Below are positions 1,313 through 32,000 of a stretch of 32,000 nt of DNA, piece by piece. Numbering within the stretch: position 1 is the stretch's first letter; each line of letters begins with the position of its first letter. Location: the NCBI GenBank assembly GCA_041657425.1, contig JBBABY010000003.1:106952-138951 (forward strand). Reading direction: 5' to 3'. Both the position numbers and the translations under genes were made by a program. This DNA is from an archaeon (GTDB lineage: Archaea; Iainarchaeota; Iainarchaeia; Iainarchaeales; CSSED10-239). The notes under the pieces were generated by a model. That model saw only the letters and a list, made by a program, of their open reading frames with translations, had not been told where the DNA came from and searched no databases.

Positions 1313-1324
1313 TTTTTAACTCCG

Positions 1325-1560
1325 GTTGCTCTGCAACCAAAATAGATATATGCGTTTATAATATATAAAACCAGTGGTGTAAATCAAATCGAAAAACGAT
1401 TATTAATAGTAATTATTTTTCGTAGAAATAGATAGCGAACCTCGTTCGTCAACTGCTTACAAATTTCTTCGTAAGCTTGTAACTATGTCAGAGACACGCT
1501 ACATTTGGCTGGTTGACAGGCAGCCTACTCAAAACAGATATACCATCTTGAGCTATATTA
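1325..1560 (-). ncRNA. predicted TnpB guide RNA (omega/reRNA) scaffold region; extent is a guess
   Basis: In characterised TnpB systems the guide RNA overlaps the 3' end of tnpB and the right end of the element. This region holds stacked hairpins at 1455-1476 (GCTTAC/GTAAGC), 1436-1448 (CGAAC/GTTCG) and 1324-1338. Confidence 0.3.
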
Positions 1561-2591
1561 CGAGAAGCATTGAGATCAGCATGAAGTTCAAATCCACATT
1601 TACAGCATTTAAAAGAGGAACCATTACGATTGCCTTTATAGACATGCCCGCAAATTGAACATTTTTGAGAAGTATAACGAGCATCAATAAATATAACCCT
1701 CTTGCCAAGATTTTCGGCTTTATACCGGATAAACTGTTCAAGTTCAAAGAACGACCAATTGTTCAATTTTCGATTAAAAATTTTCCCGCGTCGTTTTTGT
1801 ACCCGAATTTTAGTAAGGTCTTCAAGAGCGAATACTGTATATTGGGTTTGTATAATTTGCTTCGAGATACAGTGATTAACATCAGTCACAAACCGTCTTT
1901 CTCGACCGGAAAGTTTCTTTAACTTTCTTTTAGCAGATCGAGTGCCTTTAGACTGTAATTGAGCTCGGAGATATGCGTACTGCGACCGCGTATTCTTCAC
2001 TGCCCGGGAATTAAAAAATGTGTTGTCGGAACAGACCGCAATGTTAATAATGCCTCTATCGATTCCAAGAACCATTTGATCGGGAATGATTTTGGGAGTA
2101 TTCGTTTCAATCTGACAATGCAAATAAAACATATTGCCAGTCTTACGAAGAGACAGTGTAGATGATTTAATTTTCCACGTTAAATATGGTATATAATACT
2201 TCGGAACTATAAATTCAACTTTTACTCTACCGTTTGAAGTAGCAATAGTTGCGTAACCAGATTCCAAACAAACCCTAATAACCTGCGAATTATATAACAT
2301 TGCCGAATGTTCTTTACGAATCGGTTTATATCGACACTTTACCGATTTCAAAGATGCGCAAGCAACATCTCTTGCACACTGAACCAACGAAGAGGGAAAA
2401 TTGGGTATCAATTCCCGAATTTTATAATAAGTTGATTTATGGCAATCTATCTTATTAGCAGTATGATTATCAAACCCCCAAGTTGAACAAATATTAAATG
2501 CGGTTGTATAATCTCTCATTGTTTTAAAAAGAGATATCTTCGCATCAGAAGAAACATTTAGTTTCAACTTGATTGTTCTAATCATATTCAT
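1488..2591 (-). CDS. tnpB: TnpB (OrfB) RNA-guided nuclease, IS200/IS605 family, 367 aa
   Basis: RuvC-like motifs LGIDRGI, FALEDL and HADLNASRNIA, with a zinc ribbon CSICGH...FKCCKCGF between them. Length is typical of the family. Confidence 0.9.
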   Translation of the reverse strand: MNMIRTIKLKLNVSSDAKISLFKTMRDYTTAFNICSTWGFDNHTANKIDCHKSTYYKIRELIPNFPSSLVQCARDVACASLKSVKCRYKPIRKEHSAMLYNSQVIRVCLESGYATIATSNGRVKVEFIVPKYYIPYLTWKIKSSTLSLRKTGNMFYLHCQIETNTPKIIPDQMVLGIDRGIINIAVCSDNTFFNSRAVKNTRSQYAYLRAQLQSKGTRSAKRKLKKLSGRERRFVTDVNHCISKQIIQTQYTVFALEDLTKIRVQKRRGKIFNRKLNNWSFFELEQFIRYKAENLGKRVIFIDARYTSQKCSICGHVYKGNRNGSSFKCCKCGFELHADLNASRNIAQDGISVLSRLPVNQPNVACL

Positions 2592-2765
2592 ATATTAATA
2601 CTAATAGTATATATAACTTTCTATTATTGATTTTGATAAAGATTTACCCATTCCGATCCATCTGGTAAAATGAGAATATTTCTAGAAACCGAATTGCTAT
2701 AGTTGGTAGGGTCAACCTCCATATATCTTCTTGATCCTATAGGGTCTCCGGTAATAGACCCAACC

Positions 2766-2785
2766 GGAATTAATAATTTAATTCC
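2766..2785. repeat. perfect 8-bp stem / 4-nt loop hairpin, candidate IS left-end hairpin
   Basis: ggaattaa-taat-ttaattcc read directly from the sequence, about 175 nt upstream of the tnpB start. Confidence 0.45.
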
Positions 2786-2802
2786 ATTAGATATCATTTT
2801 AA

Positions 2803-2882
2803 TGCAACGGGTTGGATTCGAACCAACAATGTAAGTCAAATGGCATGCCTCACTTACGTTTTCCCAGTTAAACTACTGTTGC
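2803..2882 (-). tRNA. tRNA-like gene A: canonical acceptor, D and T arms but a 15-nt anticodon loop; anticodon undetermined
   Basis: Reverse complement reads GCAACAG-TA-GTTT-AACTGGGA-AAAC-G-TAAGT-[GAGGCATGCCATTTG]-ACTTA-CATT-GTTGG-TTCGAAT-CCAAC-CCGTTGC-A. There is one A.C mismatch in the acceptor stem. No 7-nt register of the loop has U33. Confidence 0.5.
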
Positions 2883-2961
2883 TTTTAATATGTTCCCTTT
2901 CCACGCTTATGAGGAACAACGGGTCTGGTTCCCAAAGGAATCTTCCGCGTGCCAGACCCGA

Positions 2962-3046
2962 TGACCGGGGTGGGATTTGAACCCACGTATCAGCAACCTA
3001 TTAGGTGATTGCCTGCGATGGCCTTTCACCGCTTTGCCACCCTGCC
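2962..3046 (-). tRNA. tRNA-like gene B: good acceptor and T arm and a class-II-like D loop, but an aberrant anticodon region; anticodon undetermined
   Basis: Reverse complement reads GGCAGGG-T-GGC-AAAGCGGTGAAAG-GCC-ATCGCA-GGCAA-[TCACCTAATAGG]-TTGCT-GATAC-GTGGG-TTCAAAT-CCCAC-CCCGGTC-A. A TATA-like ATTTATTC lies about 22-29 nt upstream. Confidence 0.45.
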
Positions 3047-3166
3047 AAATATGTATAGGATGTTTAAGAATAAATACTTTTTGATTTAAATTGACTCGTC
3101 AATGGGTATATCCTATGAAAGATGTGTCCCAATAAAGGGTATATCCCATTTGACATTTGATAATAT

Positions 3167-3283
3167 AAGGATAATGAGGATTTGAACCTCATTCGCAGGA
3201 CATTACCCTACTAACCACGGTGCTCACCGAATCAGTCTAATGTTGGCTAAAGGTGGTCTTTCAACAACTAGCAACCTATCCTT
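3167..3283 (-). tRNA. tRNA-like gene C: class-II shape (long variable arm) with a 27-nt insertion; the loop reads CUUUAG.., anticodon UUA in the canonical register
   Basis: Reverse complement reads AAGGATA-GG-TTGC-TAGTTGTT-GAAA-G-ACCAC-CTTTAG[27 nt]C-GTGGT-(variable arm GTAGGG-TAATG-TCCTGC)-ATGAGG-TTCAAAT-CCTCAT-TATCCTT. Confidence 0.45.
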
Positions 3284-3308
3284 ACGCCTTTGTGTACACG
3301 CAGGCGCA

Positions 3309-3428
3309 AACCAGAGATGAGATTTGAACTCATTATTCAATTTCTCGCGCGAGATTGGGTCTCTTGTGGAACTTGGCATCCCGTTCTCGCGGTGCGAGTT
3401 GACAACACATCTTTTGTGTTTCTCTGGT
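3309..3428 (-). tRNA. tRNA-like gene D with a bulge-helix-bulge-like intron of about 50 nt; anticodon tentative (CGC or GCA depending on register)
   Basis: Reverse complement reads ACCAGAG-AA-ACACA-AAAGA-TGTGT-TG-TCAA-CTCGC-[ACC]-GCGAGA-(30 nt)-TCTCGC-GCGAG-[AAA]-TTGA-ATA-ATGAG-TTCAAAT-CTCAT-CTCTGGT-T. Confidence 0.4.
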
Positions 3429-3648
3429 AATAATTAATCCGGATTTTGGTTCTTGGCTCCGGTCGCCTCAACCACCTTGTTACTGCCCCGATTGGTGTAA
3501 TCCCGCACGGGGGGGTGCGCGGTGATTAACGTGATAGCACATTAACTCACGTAGCATTGTTATTTTGGTTGCTTCTACCTCAATTACGCTTGACGTTCGT
3601 AATCTACGACCATACTTCCACAGTGATATCACTTCCGTGGTTTCTGGA
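3429..3648 (-). ncRNA. GC-rich structured spacer between tRNA-Gln and tRNA-like D; candidate unclassified ncRNA
   Basis: Several hairpins were read directly: CCACAGTGAT/ATCACT..GTGG, ATTACG/CGTAAT, CGCAC-C6-GTGCG and CCGGA/TCCGG. There is no ORF, and GC is well above the local background. Confidence 0.3.
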
Positions 3649-3719
3649 TAGGGCTAGGGTGAGTCGAACACCCGCCGCCGGCTCCAAAGGCCGGCATTAA
3701 TCCGCTAAACTGTAGCCCT
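3649..3719 (-). tRNA. tRNA-Gln (anticodon UUG)
   Basis: Reverse complement reads AGGGCTA...CCGGC-CTTTGGA-GCCGG-CGGC-GGGTG-TTCGACT-CACCC-TAGCCCT-A. The acceptor stem is a perfect 7 bp starting with A1-U72, which is an archaeal tRNA-Gln trait. The D arm is poorly paired. A TATA-like AAATAATA is centred near -25. Confidence 0.7.
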
Positions 3720-3799
3720 TCTCGTTTGTCAAGAGAATGTATTATTTGCCCTTGTGTGTTTCCATTCTCTTGACATATCCATATACGCTCGCTAAATAT

Positions 3800-4003
3800 T
3801 TATACCTTTTCATCCAACGGACAATCTTCCGGAAACTCTCTTTCTACCAAGTCGCAAAAAATGTCAACATTATTATCAACGTCAAAAATCTTTTTATTTA
3901 ACACCGAACACCAACACTTCTCCTCGTCGTCGTAGTTGTGGTAGAAGTTTCTGCATAATGAATTACAGTGTGCAATTTCATACGAGACGATTTTGGTTTT
4001 CAT
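3800..4003 (-). CDS. hypothetical Cys-rich protein, 67 aa
   Basis: ORF track; contains HCNSLC, CWC and DCP motifs. Confidence 0.45.
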   Translation of the reverse strand: MKTKIVSYEIAHCNSLCRNFYHNYDDEEKCWCSVLNKKIFDVDNNVDIFCDLVEREFPEDCPLDEKV

Positions 4004-4248: not shown

Positions 4249-4695
4249 TTAAACAACCCCTTTCATTATTCTTTCTGCTTTCATAATATTTATATCTTTC
4301 TCAATCTTTTCATTCAACTTCTCCGCCATCGCATACAACTCTTCTTCTGTATATCCTTCCGGTGCAACACTCAAAGCATTATACGCTGTAGGTTCTACTT
4401 TCCTTTTCCACAGATTTTGATCATTTACTATTGTTCCGTCAATAATTGGGATCTCATATTCTATCCAATATCCTGTTATCATTGTGAATATTAATTCGCC
4501 GTCGATTTTAGTTATCTCGCGGTGATGGTCGCAGGTCGTGTAAGTAACAATACTACTTTTTCTACAATCCGATGGAACTTTATCACCCGGCTGATATGTA
4601 TTCATCATACACGCCAAATCTTTTGTTTGGAAAGTGTTAATGATACTATTACCACAGATTGGGCAACCAACGTCTAATTCTATATAATCATACAT
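4249..4695 (-). CDS. hypothetical protein with an N-terminal CxxC zinc-ribbon-like motif (start placed at the internal Met, 148 aa)
   Basis: The ORF track gives 4249-4752. The ATG at 4695 is preceded by AAAGGTGAT and follows the stop of the upstream small ORF by 7 nt. Motifs CPICGN and CDHH are present. Confidence 0.55.
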   Translation of the reverse strand: MYDYIELDVGCPICGNSIINTFQTKDLACMMNTYQPGDKVPSDCRKSSIVTYTTCDHHREITKIDGELIFTMITGYWIEYEIPIIDGTIVNDQNLWKRKVEPTAYNALSVAPEGYTEEELYAMAEKLNEKIEKDINIMKAERIMKGVV

Positions 4696-4702
4696 CCCAA
4701 TT

Positions 4703-4873
4703 TTAATCACCTTTAATTTCTCTCGTATATCCACAGTATCCACACGATTCAACTATACCATCAGTATATAAATCACTATGGAGACCGAGTTTCTTTTCAC
4801 AGTTTGGGCACGAATGACCTTCGATATACCATGTATCTGCAATCGGTATTGAGAACGGAAATGTGGATTTCAT
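4703..4873 (-). CDS. small zinc-ribbon protein, 56 aa (below the ORF-track cutoff)
   Basis: Hand translation: MKSTFPFSIPIADTWYIEGHSCPNCEKKLGLHSDLYTDGIVESCGYCGYTREIKGD, with CxxC...CxxC. Confidence 0.4.
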   Translation of the reverse strand: MKSTFPFSIPIADTWYIEGHSCPNCEKKLGLHSDLYTDGIVESCGYCGYTREIKGD

Positions 4874-4876
4874 AGA

Positions 4877-4949
4877 TAGGCTCGGTCAGGATCGAACTGA
4901 CACCCTTTGCCTTATAAGAACAACGCACCACCGATTGTGCTACGAGCCT
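4877..4949 (-). tRNA. tRNA-Ile (anticodon UAU)
   Basis: Reverse complement reads AGGCTCG-TA-GCAC-AATCGGTG-GTGC-G-TTGTT-CTTATAA-GGCAA-AGGGT-GTCAG-TTCGATC-CTGAC-CGAGCCT-A. This is a clean cloverleaf. A TATA-like TTTAAATATT lies at about -25 to -34. Confidence 0.8.
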
Positions 4950-8112: not shown

Positions 8113-9023
8113 CAATTTAACCCCGACTCTATTTTATGCGCGATATTAAGATTTCTCAATCCCTGCTCCAATGTTACTGGGAAAGACATTTTTGTTTCAA
8201 CGCAATTAAGAAATGTAGATAATTCCTCTTTAAGAGGTTCTAACTTTGGAACCATAACTTTTTCAACTATTCCTTCCCTTGTGTATTTATTATTATTCAT
8301 ATTATATCGTTCGGGCTTACTATAAATAGTAATCTCCTGTGTCATATAATCACCTTCGATTGTATAATCTTCCTGTTCAATGTATATACTTCGAATCTTC
8401 TTTGACGCTTTTCTGCTTGCAGATAAATAAACTGTTGTTTTATCAAAATCTAATAGCGCGCCACAAATATCATTGCTCCCAGAACTGTAAATATATTCTG
8501 TCGGTTTCCAGTCCAATAAATTATACACAACATCAATATCATGAATCATAAGATCCAAAACCACAGATCCAGTAACACGCGCGGATGCCGGGTTATGACG
8601 TTTAGATTCAATGTATATTGGTGAATCAATTATCTTTTTTATTTCTTTAACAATCGGGTTGAACCTTTCAATTTGCCCGACCCCACAAATCAACCCAGAA
8701 GGAGTCATTTCTATTAATTGTTTGGCGTCTAAAACAGATTCGCAGGCTGGCTTTTCGATCAGCAGGGGTATATTAGATTCGATTACTTTCTTTGCCACCT
8801 CATAATGATACTGCGTTGGAACACAAATACTGACTGCATCAACTTTTTCTAAAAGATTATCTATCGATGCGCAATATATTCCGTTATTTTTCGTCGCCAC
8901 TTCTTTTGCAACACTTTCATTTATATCAGTCACAAATAAATTATCCACATTTTTTAATTCCGAATAAACACGAGCATGATTCTTCCCCATCATACCCACA
9001 CCAATAACACCAACATTAAGCAT
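8112..9023 (-). CDS. Gfo/Idh/MocA-family NAD-dependent oxidoreductase (WbpB-like)
   Basis: N-terminal VGVIGVGMMGKNHARVY Rossmann motif and an EKP motif (LLIEKP). It sits between the dehydrogenase and the aminotransferase. Confidence 0.85.
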   Translation of the reverse strand: MLNVGVIGVGMMGKNHARVYSELKNVDNLFVTDINESVAKEVATKNNGIYCASIDNLLEKVDAVSICVPTQYHYEVAKKVIESNIPLLIEKPACESVLDAKQLIEMTPSGLICGVGQIERFNPIVKEIKKIIDSPIYIESKRHNPASARVTGSVVLDLMIHDIDVVYNLLDWKPTEYIYSSGSNDICGALLDFDKTTVYLSASRKASKKIRSIYIEQEDYTIEGDYMTQEITIYSKPERYNMNNNKYTREGIVEKVMVPKLEPLKEELSTFLNCVETKMSFPVTLEQGLRNLNIAHKIESGLN

Positions 9024-11857: not shown

Positions 11858-11914
11858 AGCAACCAGCGGGTGTTGAACCCGCAACGATCTGCCACGAGGG
11901 GTTATCTTGGTTGC
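11858..11914 (-). other. tRNA-like minihelix (acceptor stem plus T arm only, about 56 nt)
   Basis: Reverse complement reads GCAACCA-(25 nt)-GCGGG-TTCAACA-CCCGC-TGGTTGC-T. The acceptor stem is a perfect 7 bp and the T arm is present, but there is no room for both a D arm and an anticodon arm. Confidence 0.3.
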
Positions 11915-11919
11915 ATTTT

Positions 11920-11948
11920 GACCGGCGCATTATTTTATTGCGCCGGTC
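11920..11948. repeat. perfect 10-bp GC-rich hairpin (GACCGGCGCA / TGCGCCGGTC), followed by TTTT on the + strand
   Basis: Read directly from the sequence; no convincing + strand gene lies upstream of it. Confidence 0.5.
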
Positions 11949-19052: not shown

Positions 19053-19125
19053 AGTTCGCAGGGGGAGTTGAACCCCCAACCTTCGGATTGCAATCCCGAC
19101 GCACTACCAATTGTGCTATGCGAAC
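19053..19125 (-). tRNA. tRNA, anticodon UGC by loop position (nominally Ala, but lacks G3:U70)
   Basis: Reverse complement reads GTTCGCA-TA-GCAC-AATTGGTA-GTGC-G-TCGGG-ATTGCAA-TCCGA-AGGTT-GGGGG-TTCAACT-CCCCC-TGCGAAC-T. A TATA-like TTTAAAAA is centred near -24. Flanking bases extend the acceptor helix to 10 bp. Confidence 0.7.
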
Positions 19126-21786: not shown

Positions 21787-22614
21787 TCATATCACACTTA
21801 TATTATCCCCATTACTACTTATAACTATCGTCCCACCCAAATCCGTTCTATACACTTTCACCTTTTCCAACCGCGCCAGTGTTTGTTTCGTCGGGTGTCC
21901 GTATTTATTATTCGCTCCAACTTCAATCACCGCATATCTTGGCACGATGGCATTTAAAAATTGCACACTACTCGCCGTTGAACTTCCGTGATGCCCAACC
22001 TTCAAAACATCCGCGCCTAATTCATCGCCACTCGTCACAAGTTTAGTTTCAATCGGGTATCCGGCATCTCCCATTAATAAGAATGTATTTCTACCATACG
22101 TGATTTGTAAAACCACGCTCTGTTCATTCAAATCTTCGGAATCAACATATCCTTTACTGCTCAAAACTTTCACAGACACGTTTGGGTCTAAAACAATAGA
22201 ATCTCCATGACGAACAATCACGTGGTTGGGAATTTTAGTCATCAACGAAGTATAAGTTTTTTCTGTGGAAGTTGATCCGCCATCAATGTATTCAGACGTT
22301 GGAACATTCGTGATAATGTATTCCATACCACCAATATGATCCACATGCGGATGGGTTGCAACCACTGCGTCTAGGTGTGTTACACCAATCTTCTTTAGAT
22401 ACGCAAGTTCCGACACTTCGGAATCCGTTGTGCCTGCATCCACGAGCATTGTTTCACCATTGGGAAATCGGACAAGTTCTGAATCTCCTTGACCAACATC
22501 GATGAAGTGAACAGCAAGATTACCGTTGTTATTTATGGGCGCAGGCACGGTTTGGGTGCAACCGACAATGAGAAGGAATAAAATGCATAGAATAAATGCG
22601 TATTGGAATTTCAT
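21787..22614 (-). CDS. secreted or lipobox MBL-fold hydrolase of the ComEC C-terminal-domain type
   Basis: Signal plus IVGC, then VHFIDVGQGDS and the HxHxDH motif (THPHVDHIGG), and later VGHHGS. This pattern is typical of the ComEC/Rec2 metallo-beta-lactamase domain. Confidence 0.8.
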   Translation of the reverse strand: MKFQYAFILCILFLLIVGCTQTVPAPINNNGNLAVHFIDVGQGDSELVRFPNGETMLVDAGTTDSEVSELAYLKKIGVTHLDAVVATHPHVDHIGGMEYIITNVPTSEYIDGGSTSTEKTYTSLMTKIPNHVIVRHGDSIVLDPNVSVKVLSSKGYVDSEDLNEQSVVLQITYGRNTFLLMGDAGYPIETKLVTSGDELGADVLKVGHHGSSTASSVQFLNAIVPRYAVIEVGANNKYGHPTKQTLARLEKVKVYRTDLGGTIVISSNGDNISVI

Positions 22615-31643: not shown

Positions 31644-32000
31644 ATGGCCGAACTACCAATCCAACATCAACCAACGGTTGATAAAATTTATAAATATTAT
31701 GTGGATAAAAATATTGAATGGCGAAGACCGCATCTCGGAGCCTCTTTGATCGGTGAGGACTGTCAAAGAAAGTTATGGTATTCATTTAGACACTGCTCTT
31801 CTCCCAATTTCATTGGTAGAATGCAGAGGCTTTTTGCCACGGGGAAAATCGAAGAAGAACGTATTATAAATGATTTGAGAAATATTGGCGTCTGCGTATA
31901 CGACCGTGATCCATCTTCCGGAAAACAATTATCTTGTTTTGACGAGGATTGCCCACACCACAGTGGGAGTGTAGATGGTAACGCCAAAGGGGTTGAAGAG
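31644..32000 (+). CDS. phage-type PD-(D/E)XK (Cas4/RecB-like) exonuclease, N-terminal part (runs off the window; not in the ORF track)
   Basis: Hand translation is open for all 119 codons: MAELPIQHQPTVDKFYKYYVDKNIEWRRPHLGASLIGEDCQRKLWYSFRHC...HHSGSVDGNAKGVEE. The ATG is preceded by AAGGTGA. Confidence 0.5.
   Translation, partial: MAELPIQHQPTVDKIYKYYVDKNIEWRRPHLGASLIGEDCQRKLWYSFRHCSSPNFIGRMQRLFATGKIEEERIINDLRNIGVCVYDRDPSSGKQLSCFDEDCPHHSGSVDGNAKGVEE

Follow-up and report, generated by a model that had tools for sequence, protein, structure and literature searches.

Organization of the RNA island

The window analysed here is a stretch of 32,000 nt from an archaeal metagenome assembly (GenBank GCA_041657425.1, contig JBBABY010000003.1) and belongs to a metagenomic contig of 138,947 nt found repeatedly across samples. 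Its minus strand carries an island of small RNA genes in which an ordinary tRNA-Gln and four further tRNA-shaped elements, designated A, B, C and D, are interleaved with other structured RNA segments; related loci used for comparison are denoted by L-numbers (L086, L113 and so on). Read along the minus strand, the island opens with promoter 1, a B recognition element (BRE)/TATA-like box found by direct reading of the sequence (AAAAGGTATAAATATTT, positions 3794–3810), followed by a 5′ leader hairpin (3728–3774) formed by a 12-bp inverted repeat (GUCAAGAGAAUG ... CAUUCUCUUGAC) and by the tRNA-Gln(UUG) gene (3649–3719), which begins with A1–U72, has no intron, is called by ARAGORN and scores 53.6 bits against Rfam. 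Segment S (3429–3648), element D (3309–3428), a small hairpin (3284–3307) and element C (3166–3283) come next. A second TATA-like box, promoter 2 (3068–3077), is located about 27 nt upstream of element B (2962–3046), which is followed by the conserved two-hairpin small RNA module H1–H2 (2885–2960) and by element A (2803–2882). The next gene after A is tnpB (2591–1488), within an insertion sequence (IS).

For the module scan, a tRNA-shaped module was defined as a 5-bp T stem with a TTCRANN loop and a 7-nt strand pairing with a 7-mer located 62–130 nt upstream. Between positions 2750 and 3780 five such modules were found on the minus strand and none on the plus strand, compared with a mean of 0.001 in 2000 dinucleotide shuffles, and the GC content is 42–47.5% across 2801–3600, compared with 30–38% in most other 400-nt bins of the window. 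The initial annotation of this DNA, made by eye, had described a GC-rich island of five co-oriented tRNA-shaped genes headed by a normal tRNA-Gln with its own TATA box and ending at a tnpB element, with several AU-rich acceptor stems that begin with A1–U72. All of these points are borne out, the A1–U72 start being seen in tRNA-Gln, C and D. What it missed is the interleaving of the modules with conserved small RNAs (in the 79 nt that separate B from A and in the 220-nt spacer, S), an arrangement which points to a role in processing.

In a sensitive search of positions 2600–3900 (1.3 kb) with the Rfam tRNA model (RF00005, gathering threshold 29 bits), tRNA-Gln and A (45.9 bits) pass, B falls below the threshold (27.5 bits), and C and D give no match at E ≤ 10. 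ARAGORN in its default mode reports tRNA-Gln(UUG) at 3719–3649 and an undetermined tRNA at 2882–2803. Its intron search, which the initial annotation had proposed, does return further calls, A as Asn(att) and C as Stop(tta), but neither holds up, as described below for each element. The features required of a decoding tRNA were a 5-bp anticodon stem that stacks on the D stem and a 7-nt loop in which position 33 is U and position 37 is a purine. These features are found in tRNA-Gln and in spliced D (loop CUCGCAA, on a 4-bp stem), and they are absent from A, B and C, which combine an acceptor and T-arm fold with a lack of decoding capacity, as expected of t-elements. The gene content of the island differs in each relative examined.

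The promoter 1 motif also stands upstream of the first tRNA in L090, L096, L088 and L113, and the arms of the leader hairpin are conserved in these same loci (L088, L090, L096 and L113); the hairpin is kept in all relatives whose island opens with a tRNA. The promoter 2 motif, (ATAGAAA)-TTATTTAAAC-...-CATATACATATT, is conserved in L086, L090, L091, L096, L106 and L113, where it immediately precedes B, H1 or a tRNA-like element. A 16-nt direct repeat (ATGGGATATACCCTTT / ATAGGATATACCCATT, minus strand) at 3101–3116 and 3134–3149 lies upstream of the B promoter and may be a regulator binding site. The orthologues of tRNA-Gln either lack an intron or carry a bulge–helix–bulge intron of 36 or 86 nt: the gene in the window (3649–3719) has none, that of L093 (6707–6816) has a 36-nt bulge–helix–bulge intron and that of L113 (5964–6126) has an 86-nt insert, which indicates intron gain or loss among close relatives.

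Element D and its intron

Element D was identified by the module scan, and the initial annotation had assigned to it an expanded, non-canonical anticodon loop of about 58 nt. The count is correct; the loop itself, however, is a 7-nt anticodon loop interrupted by a 51-nt ordinary archaeal intron. The bulge–helix–bulge finder that was written for this study was validated on the intron-containing tRNA-Met and tRNA-Gln genes of relatives; its strict motif (hBHBh′) consists of two 3-nt bulges separated by a 4-bp helix, with flanking helices, whose removal restores a tRNA. D contains one strict hBHBh′ motif, with the central helix CUCG/CGAG, the bulges CAC and AAA, an outer helix of 4 bp and an inner helix of 7 bp, and a motif of this type was found in none of 1000 shuffles of the region. 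Exon 1 (3393–3428) comprises the acceptor strand ACCAGAG, the D arm ACAC/GUGU, the anticodon stem and the loop segment CUCGCA; the intron spans 3342–3392; and exon 2 (3309–3341) starts with A38, UUGA and a 2–3-nt variable region and ends with the T arm AUGAG-UUCAAAU-CUCAU, the acceptor strand CUCUGGU and the discriminator U. Splicing at position 37/38 would join ...CUCGCA to A... and give the loop CUCGCAA (C32-U33-CGC-A37-A38) with the anticodon CGC. A standard 7-nt loop after splicing is the outcome that the initial annotation had named as contradicting its description, and for D this is what is found. The element is 95% identical to L113 6668–6786, compared with 81% for the adjacent open reading frame (ORF) DNA and 72% for the D–C spacer, and the central helix in L113 still has 4 bp (CUCG/CGGG) with a single change, from U–A to U·G. 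No C/D boxes were found in the D intron.

Spliced D has several unusual features, namely a 4-bp anticodon stem (G27·A43), a 2–3-nt variable region, a D loop that lacks G18G19 and the pair C3–G70, and ARAGORN makes no call for it. Since GCG accounts for 27% of the alanine codons in the ORFs of the window, its CGC anticodon could be useful for reading GCG alanine codons. Alanine tRNAs as a rule carry G3:U70 in the acceptor stem; in D this position is C3–G70.

D is flanked by S on one side and by a conserved hairpin on the other. This hairpin, the palindrome CGCCU...AGGCG between D and C, is kept with an altered sequence in L113 (CGCCC/GGGCG) and in L090 (CGCCUUUGUG/CACAAGGGCG). S, the 220-nt spacer, is a partly conserved RNA segment by nhmmer and identity: its 5′ 124 nt match L105 (E = 1e-12) and L091 (E = 1e-10) in nhmmer, and its 3′ 123 nt are 87% identical to L113. 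Its fold z-score is weak (−1.2).

Elements B and C

Element B is a tRNA-like RNA with a D arm of the tRNA-Ser/Leu type (UGGCAAAGCGGUGAAAGGCC) that is almost invariant among relatives. In place of an anticodon arm it has a 4-bp extension, AUCG/UGAU, with a 3-nt bulge and a 6–7-bp stem with an 8-nt loop; the 12-nt loop with 6 extra nucleotides originally described is an equivalent and valid reading of this arm. B is 100% identical to L096 7282–7366, compared with 76% for the ORF DNA, 73% for the promoter and 86% for H1–H2 between the same two loci. The homologue in L090 is 81% identical and shows compensatory changes (in the acceptor, A4·G69 to G·U and G2·U71 to G–C; in the T stem, G–C to A–U), and its central hairpin has another sequence and a 4-nt loop instead of the 8-nt loop.

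Element C has an 8-bp acceptor stem, a type-II-like D region and a T arm. As initially described, 34 nt are enclosed by ACCAC/GUGGU, and these are resolved here into two hairpins with the loops AACAUUA and GAGC, which are followed by a hairpin with the loop UAAUG and by the T arm; the loops of all three hairpins of this central domain are conserved. The homologues are L113 6811–6929 (94% identity, compared with 81% for ORF DNA at that locus) and L090 7440–7579. Across these three sequences 97.6% of the pair cells are paired, compared with at most 58% when the partners are slid, and five pairs, spread over four of the five helices, are changed on both sides. With three sequences this covariation is supportive and is not proof.

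As for the ARAGORN assignment of C as tRNA-Stop(tta) with a 27-nt intron, the putative loop CUUUAGC reads CAUCCAGC in L113 and GCCAAUU in L090, and no bulge–helix–bulge motif supports the intron. The bulge–helix–bulge candidates that can be drawn in C (GCCA/UGGU and others) have an outer helix which is not conserved in L113, and a long-range helix proposed by RNAalifold is less well supported than the local GAGC hairpin, in which a C–G pair is changed to U–A. The only conserved 7-nt loop of C, AACAUUA, has A33 and U37 and lies within a branched domain. In A, B and C no bulge–helix–bulge motif, strict or relaxed, gives a tRNA.

The initial annotation had offered decayed pseudogenes as one explanation, and had suggested looking for conservation and compensatory changes in relatives; both were found for B, C and D. 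A pseudogene would be expected to change no more slowly than its neutral flanks and to lose its helices, and the identities are 100% for B, 94% for C and 95% for D, compared with 72–81% for the flanks. On this comparative evidence pseudogene status is rejected for B, C and D, since they are the best-conserved DNA in the locus and carry compensatory changes; A may be a pseudogene. B and C are conserved, structured tRNA-like RNAs, and almost certainly they do not decode.

The H1–H2 module and conserved junctions

H1–H2 matches in 12 loci were found with nhmmer, and an RNAalifold analysis of nine sequences predicts 23 pairs, eight of which show compensatory changes. In six genomes H1 starts 2–3 nt past the discriminator of the upstream element, which is B in the window and L090, tRNA-Glu in L093, tRNA-Gln in L103 and a tRNA-like element in L105 and L113. 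In L086, H1 begins directly behind the same conserved promoter, with no tRNA-like element. The core of the longer RNA described below (UCCGUGGUUAAAG) likewise begins right past the discriminator of three different upstream elements, in L088, L091 and L106. From their positions, these conserved junctions are where tRNase Z would cut, and of all the results they are the most informative. The downstream partner of A is replaced by the IS, and C closes its unit. Rfam gives no match to known RNA classes for S, H1–H2, C or D.

In relatives H1–H2 runs on into a longer RNA, and of the 374 positions of that RNA the window keeps just 2–77, which correspond to 2960–2885. A long RNA of about 300–370 nt is found after H1–H2 in all relatives (L096 7367–7740, L113 7140–7520 and L090 7708–8071, and also L086, L088, L091, L093 and L095). 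It contains the Rfam motif DUF3800-X, which scores 47–61 bits in eight relatives, with a K-turn-like GAUGA/UGA element, and at its terminus there is a T-arm-like hairpin with a covarying closing helix (ACCGGC/GCCGGU, ACCAGC/GCUGGU and ACCAUC/GGUGGU), so that the long RNA also appears to have a tRNA-like end. The genome of the window lacks both the long RNA and the following tRNA-Pro at their usual site, and DUF3800-X (RF02984, gathering threshold 38.2 bits) has no match in the window. Sequences encoding proteins similar to HNH_3 homing endonucleases are inserted inside the RNA island of L086 (6873–7379) and L093 (6893–7795), which is consistent with rapid turnover of the island.

Element A and the tnpB insertion sequence

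Element A has canonical D and T arms and an acceptor stem GCAACAG/CCGUUGC in which six of seven positions are paired, with one A·C mismatch. Its central arm is a 5–6-bp stem closed by a 15-nt loop (GAGGCAUGCCAUUUG), and a hand check confirmed the initial statement that no register of this loop has U33. The ARAGORN assignment as tRNA-Asn(att) with a 10-nt intron would have G33 and has no bulge–helix–bulge motif. No antisense target of the A loop was found above chance in the window.

A has no sequence-level homologue in any relative. Its acceptor stem and the UAG that follows it nevertheless place it in a GCAAC../..GUUGC family that occurs beside H1–H2 or the long RNA in five relatives. The members of this family retain the acceptor, D and T arms, with D stems that covary (GUUU/AAAC, GAUC/GAUC and GCUC/GAGC), and their central arms differ: L093 has a true tRNA-Glu(UUC) loop, L105 and L106 a 4-bp stem with a 7-nt loop (AUGUACA or AUUUACA), L113 a 5-bp stem with a 4-nt loop (AAAU), L091 a branched insert of about 40 nt and the window, in A, the 15-nt loop described above. 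In its predicted structure A fits the pattern of this family, in which constraint acts on the upper half of the tRNA and the anticodon arm can vary. Taken alone, A could be a recent cripple, with its A·C mismatch and a loop that looks like a local duplication (GGCAU-GCCAU).

A is also located at a rearrangement breakpoint, the order in relatives being H1–H2, the RNA of about 300 nt and tRNA-Pro, and that in the window being H1–H2, A and the tnpB IS. The IS (1313–2776, minus strand; Pfam OrfB_IS605 and Cas12f1-like TNB) lies beside the RNA array and outside it. A 16-nt inverted repeat (2776–2761 / 1328–1313) probably bounds the IS and excludes A, and synteny with the relatives picks up again at about 1368. 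A search for the exact TnpB protein found it in a single genomic context. The guide RNA of tnpB derives from the 3′ end of the element; A, as a candidate cargo or guide RNA of the IS, was rejected, since it ends 27 nt outside the inverted repeat and lies 5′ of tnpB.

Source replicon and neighbouring genes

Most likely, the replicon of about 139 kb is a large virus, or an element resembling one, of an uncultured archaeal host. The viral part of this reading is based on relatives in IMG/VR, a replication module, the lack of any housekeeping gene, related contigs of 110–139 kb and the predominance of U34 tRNAs, and the archaeal host on the TATA-type promoters and the bulge–helix–bulge tRNA introns. 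A small ORF at 4249–4743 has 41 homologues (42–100% identity), and the contigs bearing them are syntenic with the window. Ten further metagenome loci were retrieved with a DNA pattern from the conserved RNA of related loci, and two IMG/VR viral contigs hold both this pattern and a homologue of the 4249–4743 ORF in a protein alignment scan. IMG/VR scans with patterns specific to B and C gave no matches, nor did a single-protein IMG/VR scan for related loci. In a genome contig scan the neighbouring asparagine synthase had no close relatives, only bacterial matches of at most 42% identity without synteny. Six related contigs are 110–139 kb long. Beyond position 32000 of the window, L112 94–9450 encodes AAA_24, DUF669, an SNF2 helicase, VRR_NUC and many tiny ORFs, which is typical of a phage-type replication and recombination module. 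The window itself encodes an HNH/GmrSD protein, a methyltransferase, a PrimPol-helicase and a nuclease of resolvase-like type. The approximately 60 kb viewed showed no housekeeping gene of a cell, and most tRNA anticodons have U34. A cellular (DPANN-type) origin, raised by pilin and prepilin-peptidase genes and by a tRNA-Ile(UAU), is less likely than a viral one in view of the replication module and the IMG/VR membership.

On the other side of the window (L115 962–6664) a protein of 1900 amino acids with PKD repeats and a Gly_rich_2 domain is encoded. No tRNA-repair or tRNA-binding gene was found nearby; an MBL-fold ORF (21787–22614), considered as a viral RNase Z, proved to be ComEC/Rec2-like (114 bits, compared with 18 bits for RNase Z). 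A conserved ORF of 510 amino acids gave no matches in a sequence search of the PDB. A Cas12f/TnpB-like ORF of 458 amino acids in L088 is followed immediately by three direct repeats (8440–8620) of about 37 nt each (…AAACAAGAGAGATATCTGATAGATGTTGTA…), separated by spacers of about 30 nt; L098 and L104 show the same arrangement, which may be a mini CRISPR-like array on a viral genome.

Other tRNA genes and tRNA-like elements of this lineage also show unusual features. The tRNA(UGC) of the window (19053–19125, minus strand) is well formed, with U3–A70 and the discriminator U73 and without the G3:U70 alanine pair, and in its D arm it is very similar to tRNA-Ile(UAU) at 4877–4949. In L113 (6397–6482) and L091 (7348–7430) there are CAU-anticodon tRNAs of 83–86 nt with a variable arm of 12–15 nt; a Met/Ile2 anticodon is unusual for a type-II tRNA. 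The one in L113 has C33 (loop CCCAUAA) and a T arm identical to that of A. A further T-arm element (11858–11941, minus strand; homologue L093 5605–5685) consists of GCGGG-UUCAACA-CCCGC closed by GCAAUAA/UGGUUGC, with a conserved core (GCAACCAAGAYAACCC); it lies just upstream of tRNA-Met in both genomes and receives no ARAGORN or Rfam call.

Discussion

The island belongs to a cassette of non-coding RNAs that changes rapidly. From the structures, the bulge–helix–bulge motif, the conservation, the covariation and the conserved junctions described above, we infer how it may be transcribed and cleaved and what its released RNAs may do. At a probability of roughly one half, it represents two promoter-driven multi-RNA operons whose products would be separated by host tRNA-processing enzymes at the tRNA-shaped modules. 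Unit 1, transcribed from promoter 1, would comprise the leader hairpin, tRNA-Gln, S, D, the small hairpin and C, and unit 2, transcribed from promoter 2, would comprise B, H1–H2 and A. The modules would retain the part of a tRNA that is recognized by the host RNase P, tRNase Z and possibly the CCA-adding enzyme, that is, the 7-bp acceptor stem stacked on the T arm together with the D/T elbow. Cleavage at the 5′ and 3′ ends of each module would cut the precursor and at the same time set the ends of the neighbouring small RNAs. The host splicing endonuclease would excise the intron of D to give a minimal tRNA with the anticodon CGC and, probably, a circular intron, and A, B and C, with no usable anticodon loop, would not take part in decoding.

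Several observations weigh against these two operons or against their viral setting. B lies right behind its promoter, and in L086 that promoter would yield H1 with no tRNA-like element in between, so that B is not needed for the 5′ end of H1; the 100% conservation of B suggests that it has a separate function. With C closing unit 1 and A now lacking an RNA behind it, there is no neighbour that either would have to free, and the three loops of C, constant on covarying stems, exceed the needs of a bare cleavage signal. The comparison is shallow, with two to three distinct sequences each for B, C and D and none for A. As for the replicon, no capsid or terminase gene was seen, the NCBI label of the bin is 'archaeon', and the viral assignment stands on the IMG/VR membership of two relatives and on the phage-like replication module.

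A serious alternative, to which we give clearly less than even odds, is that A, B and C are stand-alone tRNA mimics that act in trans on host factors. Such RNAs might soak up or misdirect proteins that bind the acceptor and T arms (defence nucleases, or enzymes of modification, export and charging), or might be amino-acid carriers charged by synthetases that act independently of the anticodon. Synthetases for serine and leucine do not read the anticodon, and B and C have D arms of the Ser/Leu type, C with a long hairpin like a variable arm beside its T arm. B is perfectly conserved while being dispensable for freeing H1, C keeps AACAUUA, GAGC and UAAUG on covarying stems, and the replicon looks viral, counter-defence genes related to tRNA being known from viruses. 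Loop length in the central arm, however, is not conserved in B or in the family of A (4, 7, 8 or 15 nt), which argues against a loop-dependent target such as an anticodon nuclease, and no tRNA-repair or tRNA-binding gene was found nearby, the MBL-fold ORF being ComEC-like. The wider proposal that a large archaeal virus lineage encodes diversifying anticodon-less tRNA mimics (A, B, C and the GCAAC family) as trans-acting sponges or decoys, or as aminoacylated carriers, and thus as RNAs that do more than signal cleavage, appears doubtful. Of the third explanation in the initial annotation, the idea of non-decoding tRNA-like RNAs borne by a mobile element holds broadly for A, B and C on a replicon that looks viral, but not their carriage by the tnpB IS; nothing supports decoys or variants resistant to anticodon-loop nucleases, the loops being neither tRNA-like nor conserved and decoding not being restorable.

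A simple decay of tRNA genes in a fast-turnover viral array, leaving the odd members, A above all, with no present function, would account for an island whose gene content differs among all relatives examined, and for an element such as A, which has no sequence homologue, an A·C acceptor mismatch, a duplication-like loop (GGCAU GCCAU) and a position at the breakpoint beside the tnpB IS, where the downstream RNA and tRNA-Pro are missing. Yet B, C and D are better conserved than the flanking coding DNA and carry compensatory substitutions, D retains a perfect splicing motif, and even A has intact D and T arms, six of seven acceptor pairs and a score of 45.9 bits, so that we consider decay unlikely. 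Least probable, and to be given very little weight, is that A, B and C are decoding tRNAs matured by unconventional splicing or editing, for example by an endonuclease of relaxed specificity. The lineage uses tRNA introns widely (Met, Gln and Lys), and CAU is present in the first-hairpin loop of C (AACAUUA) and twice in the loop of A; but none of A, B and C can be turned into a cloverleaf by a strict or relaxed bulge–helix–bulge motif, U33 is not obtained in A with any deletion register, the loop of B differs in sequence and length (8 and 4 nt) among relatives, and the candidate loop of C has A33 and U37 within a branched domain. Introns elsewhere in the lineage are of the standard type, so nothing suggests a relaxed enzyme. 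The initial suggestion of short or non-canonical introns therefore stands for D only, where the intron is canonical, and fails for A, B and C, in which no bulge–helix–bulge motif was found.

Relation to known systems

D resembles archaeal intron-containing tRNAs in its full hBHBh′ motif at 37/38 and in its 7-nt loop with C32, U33, A37 and A38, and the Met, Gln and Lys tRNAs of the same lineage carry comparable introns. It differs from them in that the spliced product is non-canonical, has C3–G70 despite an Ala anticodon and is probably virus-encoded.

Elements that have the shape of a tRNA without its decoding function, known as t-elements, also occur at plant mitochondrial mRNAs; the sites at which RNase P and tRNase Z cut them set the ends of the adjoining RNA. 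As in those systems, tRNA-shaped modules here (B and D) abut another RNA, and the points where tRNA-like elements meet small RNAs are conserved. In contrast, the genome is probably viral and has several different elements one behind another, true tRNAs and these elements replace each other freely at a given site, the conservation of at least B and C goes further than a cleavage signal would require, and cleavage is here a prediction. In Haloferax volcanii, a t-element upstream of the 5S rRNA is cut by RNase P and tRNase Z (PMC4326828). The tRNA–microRNA-encoded RNAs (TMERs) of murine gammaherpesvirus 68 (MHV68) join a tRNA-like part to pre-microRNA hairpins, which are separated by tRNase Z (PMC4838037). 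The arrangement of B followed by H1–H2 is formally the same; the TMERs, however, are eukaryotic, with internal RNA polymerase III promoters and Dicer, whereas the RNAs described here have external archaeal TATA promoters and an archaeal host. Clusters of tRNAs on large viral genomes are also known, the haloarchaeal virus HGTV-1 having 36 clustered tRNAs on a large tailed-virus genome (PMC8651126). The island shares the clustering of tRNAs, here mostly with U34, on a large and probably viral genome, and is unlike it in that most of its members are non-canonical and are interleaved with other structured RNAs.

The motif DUF3800-X is likewise found within the RNA that follows H1–H2 in eight relatives, but in these related genomes it forms only the 3′ part of an RNA of about 300 nt with a T-arm-like end. 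DUF3800-X RNA (RF02984) is an orphan motif reportedly described by Weinberg et al. in 2017.

Conclusions

The tRNA-like processing elements, bulge–helix–bulge introns and viral tRNA clusters to which the island can be compared are each already known separately. What appear to be new are their combination on an archaeal viral genome, the exchange of true tRNAs and anticodon-less elements in one slot, and the link to DUF3800-X. For annotation, it should be noted that tRNA finders miss B, C and D and mislabel A (as Asn or undetermined) and C (as a suppressor). If the proposed organization is true, archaeal viruses of about 110–140 kb from peat, wetland and digester metagenomes would build multi-RNA operons that are punctuated by tRNAs and tRNA-derived elements, borrowing the RNase P, tRNase Z and splicing endonuclease of their hosts. 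The principle of t-elements and TMERs would thereby be extended to archaeal viruses, the orphan DUF3800-X would gain a context, forming in relatives the 3′ portion of a larger RNA whose end resembles a tRNA, and the related islands would provide a natural series of variants showing which parts of a tRNA suffice for processing.

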